Source: a phage. Taken from it: 64,000 nt of DNA. The notes beneath the pieces are model-generated. The model was not told the DNA's origin, made no database searches, and was given only the letters and a program-made list of their open reading frames with translations. Shown piece after piece: positions 15,955 to 63,782 of this stretch; positions within the stretch are counted from its first letter, which is position 1; every line of letters begins with the position of its first letter. The stretch is from NCBI GenBank assembly GCA_026209155.1, contig GCA_026209155.1_3056.1, one strand, 5' to 3'. The position numbers and the translations under genes were made by a program.

Positions 15955-16155
15955 ATGGTGCAAAAATTAATGGCACTTGTTGATGCCATCAAAGGTAATA
16001 AAAAACGTATAGCTTTTACTATTTCTGCTATGATAGGAATTTTACTTTGGAATTTTGTTTTATCGCCAGTTGCTATTGCTCATGGCGTTAGTATTCCAGT
16101 AATTACTCTTGATACATTCGTAGATTTAGCATTTGCTTTAGTTGGGTTAATTTAA
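15955..16155 (+). CDS. candidate small hydrophobic protein on the plus strand (66 aa)
   Basis: ATG at 15955 preceded by AAGGAGG (4-nt spacing); MVQKLMALVDAIKGNKKRIAFTISAMIGILLWNFVLSPVAIAHGVSIPVITLDTFVDLAFALVGLI; exactly fills the 56-61 spacer; convergent with gene 61 (4-nt overlap). Confidence 0.3.
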   Translation: MVQKLMALVDAIKGNKKRIAFTISAMIGILLWNFVLSPVAIAHGVSIPVITLDTFVDLAFALVGLI

Positions 16156-17180
16156 ATCTTAGCATATTTAGATAGCCGCATTTTAGCCATCAACCCCTGC
16201 GCAATATTATTTTTCATATATTCCATAATTTGTTCAGGGGTTGCACCTTCCTTTCTAATCATATCATTGACATCTTTTGATTTCCAGGGAGATTTATCCC
16301 AAAACATAACCCTTTCTCCTGCATCAACTAATTTAGTCATTCGTTTAATAGTGTCAGGGTGACGAGGTTCATTATCTAAAACCCATACACGTCTATCTTT
16401 AAATGGAACAATTTCTAGGTCTAATTGACCACCCGTAATAGCTATACCATTTTCAATAAAAAGTGAATCTATAGGTCCTTCTAGAACATATACATCACCA
16501 TCTTTAACCCGTTCGACTCCATAAATTTTTGTTGCCTCAGGATAAGCTTTGATGGTGATATATTTTTGGGGAGCGTCTTTCTTTAATGCACGTCCTTGAA
16601 AAGACTCAGCTTTTCCATTAGCATTATAAATTGGAATAACAAGACGAGGCTCAGGTATTTCCTTTTTATATGTTCCTGGCGCTATGCTATTAACTAATTT
16701 AGGCCATTCGGTTGTAAACCAAAGATATTTCCATTTATCCTTTGGAATACAGCGAGCTTTTACGTATTTTATAATTGGATGGTCTTCCGTCAGTTTATCT
16801 AATCTAATGCATGACGGAAGAGATTTAATTATTTTCTTCTCGGGTTGTTTAGGAAGTTCTTTAGGTTTTTCTACTGGACGACTTTTACCTTTTTCTTTTC
16901 TTATTTCAAAGATATACTCACGATATAAATCAGGTTCAAACTCCTTTAAATATATTCCGATTGGTGCATGATAGTTACAGTTATAGCAATGAATATTTCC
17001 TTCATTATTATCACCATAATACCATCCACGGGCTTTATTTTGGTCGGTTTTTGAATCTCCACAAACAGGGCATCTAAACCGTAATTTAAAAGTTGAACTA
17101 TTATTTACTTGTGTAAATTTAGGTAAATGAGCTAGCGCACGATATGCAAACTCATTATCAATCCAAGGTATTGATGACAT
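16152..17180 (-). CDS. 61: DNA primase
   Basis: 342-aa ORF, MSSIPWIDNEFAYRALAHLPKF..., zinc ribbon CPVCGD...CYNC and TOPRIM; same length as T4 gp61. Confidence 0.9.
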   Translation of the reverse strand: MSSIPWIDNEFAYRALAHLPKFTQVNNSSTFKLRFRCPVCGDSKTDQNKARGWYYGDNNEGNIHCYNCNYHAPIGIYLKEFEPDLYREYIFEIRKEKGKSRPVEKPKELPKQPEKKIIKSLPSCIRLDKLTEDHPIIKYVKARCIPKDKWKYLWFTTEWPKLVNSIAPGTYKKEIPEPRLVIPIYNANGKAESFQGRALKKDAPQKYITIKAYPEATKIYGVERVKDGDVYVLEGPIDSLFIENGIAITGGQLDLEIVPFKDRRVWVLDNEPRHPDTIKRMTKLVDAGERVMFWDKSPWKSKDVNDMIRKEGATPEQIMEYMKNNIAQGLMAKMRLSKYAKI

Positions 17181-17182
17181 TT

Positions 17183-17347
17183 TTACTCTTCTTTTTCTTT
17201 AGATTCCTCTTTTTTCTTTTTAGGAATCTGTTCAGGGCCTTTATTTACTACAGCACCTGATGTTGTTCCAGTGGAGATATTTTCAGGATTACCACCTGAA
17301 TCTCCAGCGACCATATCTTCTTTGATAAATTCTTTAAACGTTTTCAT
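17183..17347 (-). CDS. hypothetical small protein (54 aa) with MKTFKEFIKE N-terminus
   Basis: Not in ORF track; ATG 17345-17347 with GAGG RBS; MKTFKEFIKEDMVAGDSGGNPENISTGTTSGAVVNKGPEQIPKKKKEESKEKEE; occupies the 61.1 position. Confidence 0.4.
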   Translation of the reverse strand: MKTFKEFIKEDMVAGDSGGNPENISTGTTSGAVVNKGPEQIPKKKKEESKEKEE

Positions 17348-17348
17348 A

Positions 17349-17975
17349 TTAACCTCTATTCATAAAAGCGTTAAAAATTTGGTCATCAATAGAAACATTT
17401 ACTTTAGACTGTTTTTCAGATGGCAATTCATATCCACATATTACAATTTTATGATCAATATCAAAATACACAGAAGCAATATGATTAATGATATTTTCAG
17501 TGAAGTCTAAATCGACATCAATATCTTTTTGACCAAAGCCAAAAGGATAAATAATGCGAGTAATTCGATTATCTTTAACAAAGATTCCACCGACATACTC
17601 TGTACTGCGTTTAAAGTCTACACGCCGACGAAATGAAAAATATTCAGGCTCTTTATGAGCTCGGCTCATAGGACACAACGAATAACTAGAATAAGAGATG
17701 TCAAATCCTACGCCTTCGATATGAGCCAAAGTGTCATGATTAAACCAATTATAATCGTACGCCAAATCCATTAGATTATAATATGTAAAAGGCACCGGAT
17801 TAACATCATTAGTCACAAGCATATAATTAGCAACTGCTATAATTTCATTGTTTTTAACGAATACAAACCGTGATTGATGCGAATGGCCTGAACCCGCGTT
17901 TTCACGATTAATGATATAACACTGGGCACCTTTATATTTGTATGTATCTTTGCACTTGTGCATTTGATAGAGCAT
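17349..17975 (-). CDS. hypothetical protein (61.2 position)
   Basis: 208-aa ORF. Confidence 0.5.
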   Translation of the reverse strand: MLYQMHKCKDTYKYKGAQCYIINRENAGSGHSHQSRFVFVKNNEIIAVANYMLVTNDVNPVPFTYYNLMDLAYDYNWFNHDTLAHIEGVGFDISYSSYSLCPMSRAHKEPEYFSFRRRVDFKRSTEYVGGIFVKDNRITRIIYPFGFGQKDIDVDLDFTENIINHIASVYFDIDHKIVICGYELPSEKQSKVNVSIDDQIFNAFMNRG

Positions 17976-18268
17976 TATTCACCTACCACTTCAGCGATGA
18001 TATTTTTGTTATTAAAGTTTTTATCGCAATACAGAACATAATTATACTGCATTACACCACCAGACTTAAGTTGTTTTTGCACTTCAGCTTTCATTTCAGG
18101 ACGATCGCGCTCAACGATATTCATAATATCCGCTTCAATTTGAGTTTCAACTTCAGTCTGATCCGCAGTCATAGACCATTCGCACAAATCTTTATCATAA
18201 CCTGCCATAGCAGGCTGAGCAGCACAAGAAGCTAAAGCAAAAATTGCGGCAAAGATAAATTTTTTCAT
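17975..18268 (-). CDS. sp: Spackle periplasmic protein
   Basis: 97-aa ORF with signal peptide MKKFIFAAIFALASCAAQPAMA; size and position match T4 sp (61.3). Confidence 0.65.
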   Translation of the reverse strand: MKKFIFAAIFALASCAAQPAMAGYDKDLCEWSMTADQTEVETQIEADIMNIVERDRPEMKAEVQKQLKSGGVMQYNYVLYCDKNFNNKNIIAEVVGE

Positions 18269-18294
18269 GATAATCTCCTCAGTAGTTTATGTTT

Positions 18295-18328
18295 ATATAG
18301 TATCTCAATTTCCAACAAAAGTAAACAG
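18295..18328 (-). promoter_or_regulatory. T4-type early promoter upstream of sp
   Basis: Plus atagta 18297-18302 and gtaaac 18321-18326. Confidence 0.5.
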
Positions 18329-18628
18329 TTATTTTAAAACTTCTGCGTAATCACATGTTACAAACTGTTTCTCTAGCTTGACGATTTTACGAAAGTATCT
18401 TTTACATTGACGAATCTGTCGCTTAGTAGGGCGCACAGCAAACTTAATAAATTCCACTCGACCAAATGGAGGGCTTTCTTCTGATGGAATATCTAACACC
18501 AATTCCCACGTATCTGCAATAAGTGCTTTGAATTGAGTATTTTTCCTAACGTTATACGGAGTAGGTTTAAATAAAACAATATGCATATTATCCTCGGCAA
18601 TCCACTTCACATACTTTCTTGTCATCAA
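18329..18628 (-). CDS. hypothetical protein (61.4 position)
   Basis: 99-aa ORF. Confidence 0.45.
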   Translation of the reverse strand: MMTRKYVKWIAEDNMHIVLFKPTPYNVRKNTQFKALIADTWELVLDIPSEESPPFGRVEFIKFAVRPTKRQIRQCKRYFRKIVKLEKQFVTCDYAEVLK

Positions 18629-18770
18629 TGAAAGCTTTAACTAATGCTTTATTAACTTCAGCATACTGAGTAGTAGCCCATTGAACGTCATCTTTCATCA
18701 TTGTGGTTTCTTTAGTAAACATGCTTTCATTCTTAAACCACCCCATAAAAACTACCTTTACCAATTCCAT
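18588..18770 (-). CDS. dmd: Dmd-like small protein
   Basis: 60-aa ORF MELVKVVFMGWFKNESMFTK... adjacent to gene 41; matches my recollection of T4 Dmd (61.5). Confidence 0.6.
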   Translation of the reverse strand: MELVKVVFMGWFKNESMFTKETTMMKDDVQWATTQYAEVNKALVKAFIDDKKVCEVDCRG

Positions 18771-56513: not shown

Positions 56514-56555
56514 ATATACCCCTTTAGTTAGATAAACCTATTTATAACTTTTGCA

Positions 56556-62980: not shown

Positions 62981-63782
<802 letters not shown>

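Follow-up and report, generated by a model that had tools for sequence, protein, structure and literature searches.

The cleavage consensus of the phage T4 protease gp21 is L/I-x-E. The T4 internal proteins IPI, IPII and IPIII carry a capsid-targeting sequence (CTS), are processed by gp21, packaged and injected. According to a review of the mutagenesis by Mullaney and Black (PMC9026906), targeting depends mainly on CTS residues 4 and 7 and processing on residues 8 and 10. An Asp at position 10 blocks processing but leaves targeting intact, and the ten-residue CTS is sufficient for packaging foreign proteins (PMC9026906). In a 2025 study of injected T-even proteins, only Ip1-3 were counted in T4 (PMC12373910).

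The capsid protein gp23 is cut by gp21 after Glu65, which removes a 65-residue propeptide (PMC9546572), and gp23* residues 66-91 form the N-fist (PMC7136217). In the unexpanded head, the arm region of gp23 is disordered, points inwards and is thought to touch the gp22 scaffold. With expansion, it moves outwards, where it connects neighboring capsomers and contributes to the Soc binding site; the head-length mutants A66D, A94V and G97S map to it (PMC9546572). Some density in T4 head maps is unassigned, for example beneath gp24* (PMC9546572). T4 head assembly is among the best-studied pathways, yet the conserved gene 61.1 is without assigned function. A search of the open-access literature yielded no paper on the function, capsid homology or leader of 61.1, and no report of its product in T4 heads.

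Gene 61.1 between adfA and the primase gene

We analyzed a 64,000-nucleotide stretch of phage DNA (assembly GCA_026209155.1, contig GCA_026209155.1_3056.1), referred to as the window. Its segment 16100-18300 is about 98% identical to RB18- and KRT47-type phages and belongs to a Tequatrovirus genome. An initial annotation had drawn attention to an "unannotated" 54-aa ORF on the minus strand next to the primase gene, and had suggested aligning it with the T4 61.1 product. The ORF stands, with an ATG start and a GAGG 5 nt upstream (Table 1). In the alignment, 53 of 54 residues are shared with T4 gp61.1 (NP_049649, "gp61.1 hypothetical protein"), and by this identity the ORF is gene 61.1 of a T4-type phage. 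It is thus not unannotated: public records list 61.1 as "hypothetical" in T4 and hundreds of relatives, while many others call it "major capsid (domain-containing) protein".

Table 1. Location of gene 61.1, its parts and related features in the window
Feature	Position	Strand	Remarks
Gene 61 (primase)	16152-17180	minus	ATG at 17178-17180
Gene 61.1 ORF	17183-17347	minus	54 codons plus TAA, ATG start; product MKTFKEFIKEDMVAGDSGGNPENISTGTTSGAVVNKGPEQIPKKKKEESKEKEE
61.1 stop codon TAA	17183-17185	minus	followed by AA, then the gene 61 ATG
Tail, residues 39-54 (EQIPKKKKEESKEKEE)	17186-17233	minus	Lys-rich, then mixed charge; purine-rich codons just upstream of the gene 61 start
Arm, residues 11-38 (DMVAGDSGGNPENISTGTTSGAVVNKGP)	17234-17317	minus	paralog of gp23* N-terminal arm/"N-fist", gp23 residues 66-93
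Predicted gp21 cut site, I8-K9-E10/D11	17315-17320 (E10 and D11 codons)	minus	aligned with gp23 E65; predicted cleavage
Leader, residues 1-10 (MKTFKEFIKE)	17318-17347	minus	CTS-like; F4, F7, I8 and E10 present
Gene 61.2 (adfA)	17349-17975	minus	product matches Pfam AdfA (E 8.6e-136)
Shine-Dalgarno GAGG	17353-17356	minus	5 nt before the 61.1 ATG, within the last codons of 61.2; read from the sequence
ip-type ORF, 100 aa	61875-62177	minus	leader MKTYQEFITE; looks IPII-like
ip-type ORF, 86 aa	62241-62501	minus	leader MKMYQEFIAE
ip-type ORF, 93 aa	62980-63261	minus	targeting leader; late-promoter motifs upstream at 63760 and 63773

As read from the sequence, 61.1 begins 1 nt past the stop of 61.2, and this Shine-Dalgarno context recurs in T4-type loci. 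In profile searches, the product matched the short-form family phrog_1823 over its full length (residues 1-54, E 6.8e-34) and the long-form family phrog_2086 with residues 7-53 on profile positions 108-154 (E 2.1e-16). In Pfam, gp61.1 had no match at E<=1, and neither the short nor the long form had any. Hundreds of genomes carry the ORF intact. Among short-form orthologs, dN/dS on the 61.1 core is about 0.02-0.1, with synonymous sites near saturation, which indicates that 61.1 is a real protein-coding gene under strong constraint.

The leader resembles the capsid-targeting sequence

The initial annotation had counted 7 of 10 identities between the N-terminus and the internal-protein targeting sequence. 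This count was confirmed against MKTYQEFIAE, the CTS of IPII/III type found in the ip ORFs of the window itself. The window has 1112 ORFs that start with ATG and are 20 aa or longer. Of these, only 61.1 and the three ip-type ORFs (starts 62177, 62501 and 63261) matched MKTYQEFIAE at 7 or more of the 10 positions; all others had at most 4. The chance of at least 6 matches in the 9 positions after the Met is 3e-6 per ORF, or about 0.003 ORFs expected per window. The targeting determinants at positions 4 and 7 are represented in the sequence by F4 and F7, and the L/I-x-E that closes the leader, with the processing positions 8 and 10, by I8-K9-E10. Position 4 is F in the window and Y in many T4-type relatives.

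T4 IPI starts with MKTFKEFTSTTTPVSTITE/A (the slash marks cleavage), and its residues 1-7 are those of gp61.1 (7/7). At the nucleotide level, codons 1-7 of T4 ipI (L005:3592-3879) and T4 61.1 (L228:167-331), starting ATGAAAACATTTAAAGAATTT, are identical in 21 of 21 positions; over the 40 nt before the start codons, the two genes are unrelated (13/40). The third codon is ACG in the window's 61.1 and ACA in T4. The nucleotide identity with ipI suggested that 61.1 had recently acquired its leader from an ip gene. We rejected this possibility because small ORFs of marine phages share both the leader and the architecture (see below), which makes it probable that the CTS-like leader is ancient in the gp61.1 family and not a recent loan.

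Like IPI, IPII and IPIII, gp61.1 keeps residues 4, 7, 8 and 10 with the closing I-x-E, and its transcript is of the early class, as are those of ipII and ipIII. Unlike the genes of the internal proteins, which lie in variable ip loci, 61.1 adjoins the primase gene, about 45 kb from the window's ip ORFs. The predicted cargo also differs: it is a 44-residue, slightly acidic and probably disordered copy of a capsid arm, whereas that of the internal proteins is a folded, basic GmrSD inhibitor. Finally, in contrast to the hypervariable ip genes, the gp61.1 family is ancient and is kept in both Straboviridae and Kyanoviridae. gp61.1 has the sequence features of a CTS-bearing internal protein, but not its folded, basic cargo. 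Competence for capsid targeting and processing is plausible from the sequence, and has more in its favor than the initial annotation could know.

gp61.1 is homologous to the gp23 segment around the maturation site

BLASTP aligned gp61.1 residues 2-38 with T4 gp23 residues 57-93, ungapped and with 17 of 37 identities (E 2e-9). With hhalign, the short forms matched gp23 at 97.6% probability (E 3.3e-12; 61.1 residues 1-46 on gp23 54-101) and the long forms at 98.05% (E 1.4e-13). With tblastn, a 61.1 query also hit the true capsid gene of Citrobacter phage KKP_3664, at residues 56-101 of 524. In the alignment, the leader falls on gp23 residues 56-65 (AQAFGSFLTE), Glu10 on Glu65 of the maturation site LTE/A, residues 11-36 on the gp23* N-fist, and KKKK on the MVRR motif, with hhalign reaching gp23 residue 101. 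Apart from the basic patch, the shared positions are G-D, G, N-I, G, S-G-A and G-P. The initial annotation had described everything after the leader as a low-complexity acidic/lysine-rich tail. This applies to residues ~43-54, the only K/E-rich part; residues 11-40 form a strongly conserved Gly/Ser/Thr-rich segment homologous to gp23.

By these alignments, gp61.1 is a free-standing copy of the gp23 segment across the maturation cut site, comprising the last ~9 residues of the propeptide, L/I-x-E, the N-fist and the basic patch. The homology with gp23 ~54-101 (propeptide end, LTE65/A66, N-fist 66-91 and start of the N-arm) is colinear and ungapped, cut site included. Unlike gp23, gp61.1 has family-conserved residues of its own (MVAGDSGG, NKGPE), and the two do not co-vary within Straboviridae. 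An HK97-fold body (A and P domains) is not found in its 54 residues, in which only gp23 54-101 is represented. Because it is without this body, gp61.1 cannot be a capsid subunit, and database entries that list the ORF as "major capsid protein" are in error and need correction.

Residue P1' is Asp in gp61.1 and Ala or Ser at the sites of gp23, gp24, IPI and the window's ip products. The predicted mature gp61.1 has 44 residues, a net charge of about -2 and a mass of ~4.6 kDa. A small, acidic or mixed-charge product of this kind would resemble the internal peptides of the T4 head, which are fragments of gp22, gp67 and gp68 left by gp21 digestion (PMC9546572). The internal peptides differ in that they stem from scaffold-core proteins, whose genes lie in the late head-gene cluster, and in that they show no homology to the capsid arm. 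The vertex protein gp24 offers a further parallel in its leader MAKINELLRE/S, a short propeptide removed by gp21, which likewise has ten residues, hydrophobic positions 4, 7 and 8, and Glu10. This leader, unlike that of gp61.1, precedes a full capsid-fold protein, and identity between gp24 and gp61.1 is low.

Long and short forms in Straboviridae

Long forms of 154-162 aa were found in CC31-, RB49-, S16-, Acinetobacter-, Aeromonas- and KVP40-type phages. They consist of an N-domain of ~105 residues, a hydrophobic-x-Glu motif, the segment (D/E/S)MVAGDSGG...NIASGTTTGA..NKGP and a strongly basic tail (KKRKRIKVNLNKL). Among 112 collected family proteins, 105 contained the MVAGD core, and in all 105 a [LIVMF]-x-E, corresponding to the gp21 consensus, preceded it, ending 0-1 residue ahead of the core in 104 proteins and 3 residues ahead in one.

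The T-even phages are without the ~105-aa N-domain, which is the most widespread part of the family. In the AlphaFold2 model of a long form, this domain was helical (pLDDT 79-90, residues ~10-70) and the arm segment disordered (pLDDT below 50). Foldseek found no match for the long-form model in the PDB at E<=0.001, and a fold search of BFVD returned uncharacterized phage proteins only, with homologs inside proteins of 387-913 aa (e.g. 672 and 913). A profile search with the N-domain gave 1818 representative clusters at E<=0.001, all uncharacterized. Most of them measure 130-300 aa and have the domain in N-terminal position. The N-domain (phrog_2086, phrog_18642; loci L022-L036 and L119-L146; proteins P0015-P0261) thus defines a very large phage family. 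Its C-terminal partners are modular and can be the capsid-arm module, a beta-rich domain or a "KFERWSKYL" domain. In a MAFFT alignment (A3, columns 24-30), the short-form leader MKTFKEF fell on the near-invariant K-x-F-x-E-W (QKPFTEW) at the start of the long-form N-domain. This element may be a second, internal targeting-like element or an accident of the alignment.

We examined 35 Straboviridae loci, which ranged from T4-type to KVP40-type and in which primase identity fell as low as 40%. In each of them, the homolog precedes the primase gene on the same strand, immediately in 33 loci and by ~500 nt in the two of Aeromonas type. A homolog near the primase gene was also found in Sinorhizobium phage phiM7. 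In most relatives, the gap between the homolog and the primase gene is 30-80 nt or more, so tight coupling of the two genes is not general. The genes between helicase gene 41 and 61.1 (adfA, sp, 61.4 and dmd) vary among the 35 loci. With the primase linkage constant and these genes variable, gp61.1 did not ancestrally belong to the anti-defence block.

A leader-arm-basic module in marine T4-like phages

The N-domain gene of marine T4-like contigs and cultured Kyanoviridae encodes, as a rule, no arm but another, beta-rich domain at the C-terminus. In 55 of 80 marine loci, its stop codon is overlapped (ATGA) by a small ORF. The 41 unique sequences of 51-121 aa share the start consensus M-K-[S/T/K]-F-K-[D/E/Q]-hydrophobic-x-E-E, followed by an arm-like Gly/Ala-rich segment and a K/R run. 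K2 is present in 30 of the 41, F4 in 32, K5 in 22 and the K/R run in 38. Examples are MKTFKQMFDEEMMTTGDAGIPQDTRDMGPKKKRK... of locus L157 and the 58-aa product of phage C48C1 (MKTFQEFMKQFEEE...; MKTFQEFMKQFEEEITNNTSQVPGAGSDSSTVIVRKK...VLRRIMPKN). By this sequence layout, the marine small ORFs have the architecture of T4 gp61.1. The initial annotation had named a lack of N-terminal conservation in orthologs as an argument against targeting; the N-terminus is in fact kept, and as far afield as these marine phages. No primase gene was found within the 600-nt flanks of the 80 marine loci.

In gp143 of Pelagibacter phage HTVC008M (L231:2468-3334), the leader-arm module (MKTFTDFSTDLLRLKTQLEGKQQEDIANVAGDGAV...KKKK) opens a longer protein. 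The part that follows (FDMFRRGKKKFEKWSKYLNLEDE...) matches the C-terminal end of fused marine proteins of 299-310 aa (L164, L173). The comparison of gp143 with these fused proteins indicates that leader, arm and extra domains were shuffled between lineages as separate or fused genes. From the distribution of forms, it is likely that an old two-gene cassette, made up of an N-domain gene and a small leader-arm-basic gene, was fused in many Straboviridae, and that the small gene alone was kept in T-evens.

The arm and its cognate capsid protein

We compared the arm with gp23 from the same contigs for 19 lineage pairs within Straboviridae. Cognate co-variation was not found there, either by identity (14.16 versus 14.17 of 31 positions, permutation p 0.58) or by BLOSUM score (p 0.11). 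This test has little power, because gp23 is almost invariant in the family.

Among four more divergent phages (T4, Melnitz, HTVC008M and C48C1), the cognate pairing had the highest summed score of the 24 possible pairings. TE/DAPANASGSAV of Melnitz matched SE/AAPTNSTGSAV of its own gp23 (z 4.0, 0/300 shuffles), and E/DIANVAG of HTVC008M matched E/IANVTG of its own (z 2.9). For C48C1, the junction match was not significant (z 1.3), and the best local alignment paired VKVLRRIMP with ISLVRRAMP of gp23. Against non-cognate environmental gp23 junctions, the marine small ORFs had a median z of 0.6, and 4 of 40 beat all shuffles; the best of these alignments spanned leader and arm, for example SFKEIRE/TAANAVAGG with SFGAMNE/TAANATGSG. 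The cognate 4x4 comparison, on which this point depends, modestly suggests that the arm tracks its cognate capsid protein at deep divergence.

Expression of gene 61.1

The T4 61.1 transcript is classed as early, and the protein was not detected in the time-resolved proteome of T4-infected cells (PMC9697503, Table S2). In the same dataset, the ipII and ipIII transcripts are also early, and their proteins late (PMC9697503, Table S2). In the window, dmd is preceded by a sigma70-like promoter at 18828-18800 (TTTACA-17-TATAGT with TG). An own late promoter for 61.1 was considered and ruled out: upstream of the gene on the minus strand, the motif TATAAATA does not occur between 17348 and 56539, the nearest copy being at 56539.

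Possible functions of gp61.1

We tentatively favor the possibility that gp61.1 is a prohead-targeted substrate of gp21 that releases a 44-residue mimic of the N-fist. The leader would carry gp61.1 to the prohead core, and the prohead protease gp21 would cut it after Glu10, as it cuts gp23 after Glu65. The peptide set free would mimic the N-fist of gp23*, and might act by occupying N-fist/scaffold docking sites or by competing with gp23 as a substrate. This proposal builds on the observed homologies, the conserved cut-site motif, the purifying selection and the ancient two-part architecture. It is favored by the identity of the leader to internal-protein targeting sequences, which is far beyond chance, with all four mapped positions (4, 7, 8 and 10) kept. 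Also in its favor are the ungapped homology that places E10 on E65, the hydrophobic-x-Glu motif in 105 of 105 short and long forms, the strong selection on the core, the independent recurrence of the leader-arm-K/R architecture in marine small ORFs and the top score of the cognate pairing in the 4x4 matrix. Foreign proteins packaged by a ten-residue CTS (PMC9026906) and the early transcripts of ipII and ipIII may serve as precedents.

Several observations weigh against a role in the head. Despite decades of work, no 61.1 product has been reported in T4 heads, where Ip1-3 alone were counted (PMC12373910), and it was not detected in the infected-cell proteome. The transcript is early, there is no upstream late promoter, and P1' is Asp. 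A mature peptide of 44 residues with slightly acidic charge could escape through capsomer pores, like scaffold fragments, and not stay packaged. In the fused long forms, the leader is internal, behind an unrelated helical domain. The constant primase adjacency is not accounted for by a head role, and co-variation with gp23 was not seen within Straboviridae.

The early transcription would also fit a peptide that never enters the head and mimics the N-terminal junction of gp23 in the cytoplasm, as a decoy or timer. The peptide would bind a partner that normally encounters nascent gp23, for instance a host sensor or chaperone like CmdC or, on the phage side, a factor like the gp21 zymogen, gp22 or Soc. 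In T-evens, the counter-defence genes adfA (61.2), sp, 61.4 and dmd are neighbors of 61.1; host defences are known to respond to gp23 (CmdTAC, Lit/Gol) and to other capsid proteins (Avs7); and the arm follows its cognate capsid protein at deep divergence. Against such a decoy, which we regard as unlikely if worth keeping in mind, the ancestral context is not an anti-defence island, given that the genes from 41 to 61.1 vary and the primase linkage is universal, and the family is kept from coliphages to pelagiphages, unlike host-specific counter-defence genes. No homology of gp61.1 to the AdfA, Spackle or Dmd families was found, Pfam assigning AdfA to 61.2 and T4_Spackle to sp. A decoy would also have no obvious need for the conserved hydrophobic-x-Glu or a CTS-like leader. 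Its Lit/Gol version is ruled out, as the Gol core, missing from gp61.1, lies in a conserved gp23 region downstream of the part that was copied.

The position of the gene invites an explanation linked to replication, in which gp61.1 acts together with the primase-helicase, or the ORF serves mainly for translational coupling of gene 61, which is poorly expressed, and the likeness to the capsid protein is a relic. It would account for the homolog upstream of the primase gene in 35 of 35 Straboviridae loci and near it in phiM7, for the 2 nt between the 61.1 stop and the gene 61 ATG with purine-rich tail codons, and for early transcription, with the sigma70-like promoter ahead of dmd. We nevertheless consider it improbable, as selection acts strongly on the amino-acid sequence, beyond occupancy of the reading frame, most relatives have the wider gap to the primase gene, and the 80 marine loci had no primase gene within 600 nt. 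Similarity of gp61.1 to replication proteins was not found in Pfam or in the Foldseek search with the long form, and the cut-site motif and the capsid homology would be left unexplained. That 61.1 is a decaying, functionless remnant of a longer ancestral gene, with an accidental targeting-like N-terminus, could be argued from the loss of the N-domain in T-evens and from the protein going undetected in the T4 proteome. This is contradicted by selection (dN/dS 0.02-0.1 among short forms, ORF intact in hundreds of genomes), and the leader pattern is conserved and recurs in marine phages, its match to the targeting sequence having a chance of 3e-6 per ORF; we give a remnant hardly any credence.

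If gp61.1 is targeted and cut as predicted, T4 would gain a fourth natural CTS client, itself a copy of the capsid protein's own arm. This would point to the junction of the capsid propeptide as the origin of the signal by which foreign proteins are now loaded into T4 heads, and the same module in cyanophage- and pelagiphage-type genomes would extend the targeting signal across the T4 superfamily. More speculatively, and with a low probability in our estimate, the CTS could be the ancient P10-P1 segment of the capsid propeptide, borrowed by the internal proteins of T-evens. The gp61.1 family would in that case be a superfamily-wide group (Straboviridae and Kyanoviridae) of capsid-arm peptides that co-assemble on the scaffolding core, are cut like gp23 and act in head maturation. 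Such arm peptides might, for example, stand in for N-fists at places without capsid arms (portal or vertex neighbors), or be pacing substrates for gp21. The targeting hypothesis is directly testable with existing T4 genetics and mass spectrometry.

Neighboring sequences

The block upstream of 61.1 (17349-18770, minus strand) contains 61.2 (Pfam AdfA, an anti-DarT factor), sp (Spackle), a 61.4-like ORF (18329-18628) and dmd (18588-18770). It varies among relatives, whereas the linkage of 61.1 to the primase gene is constant. On the plus strand, between gene 56 and the primase gene, a 66-aa ORF (15955-16155) encodes a hydrophobic product; its annotation in KRT47 predicts a membrane protein and notes similarity to Shfl2 gp35. 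The ~98% identical phages RB18, G10400 and FriedrichZschokke have 2559 bp where the window segment 16100-18300 has 2201 bp. The extra insert of ~358 bp adds one or two hypothetical ORFs somewhere in the primase-to-sp interval.
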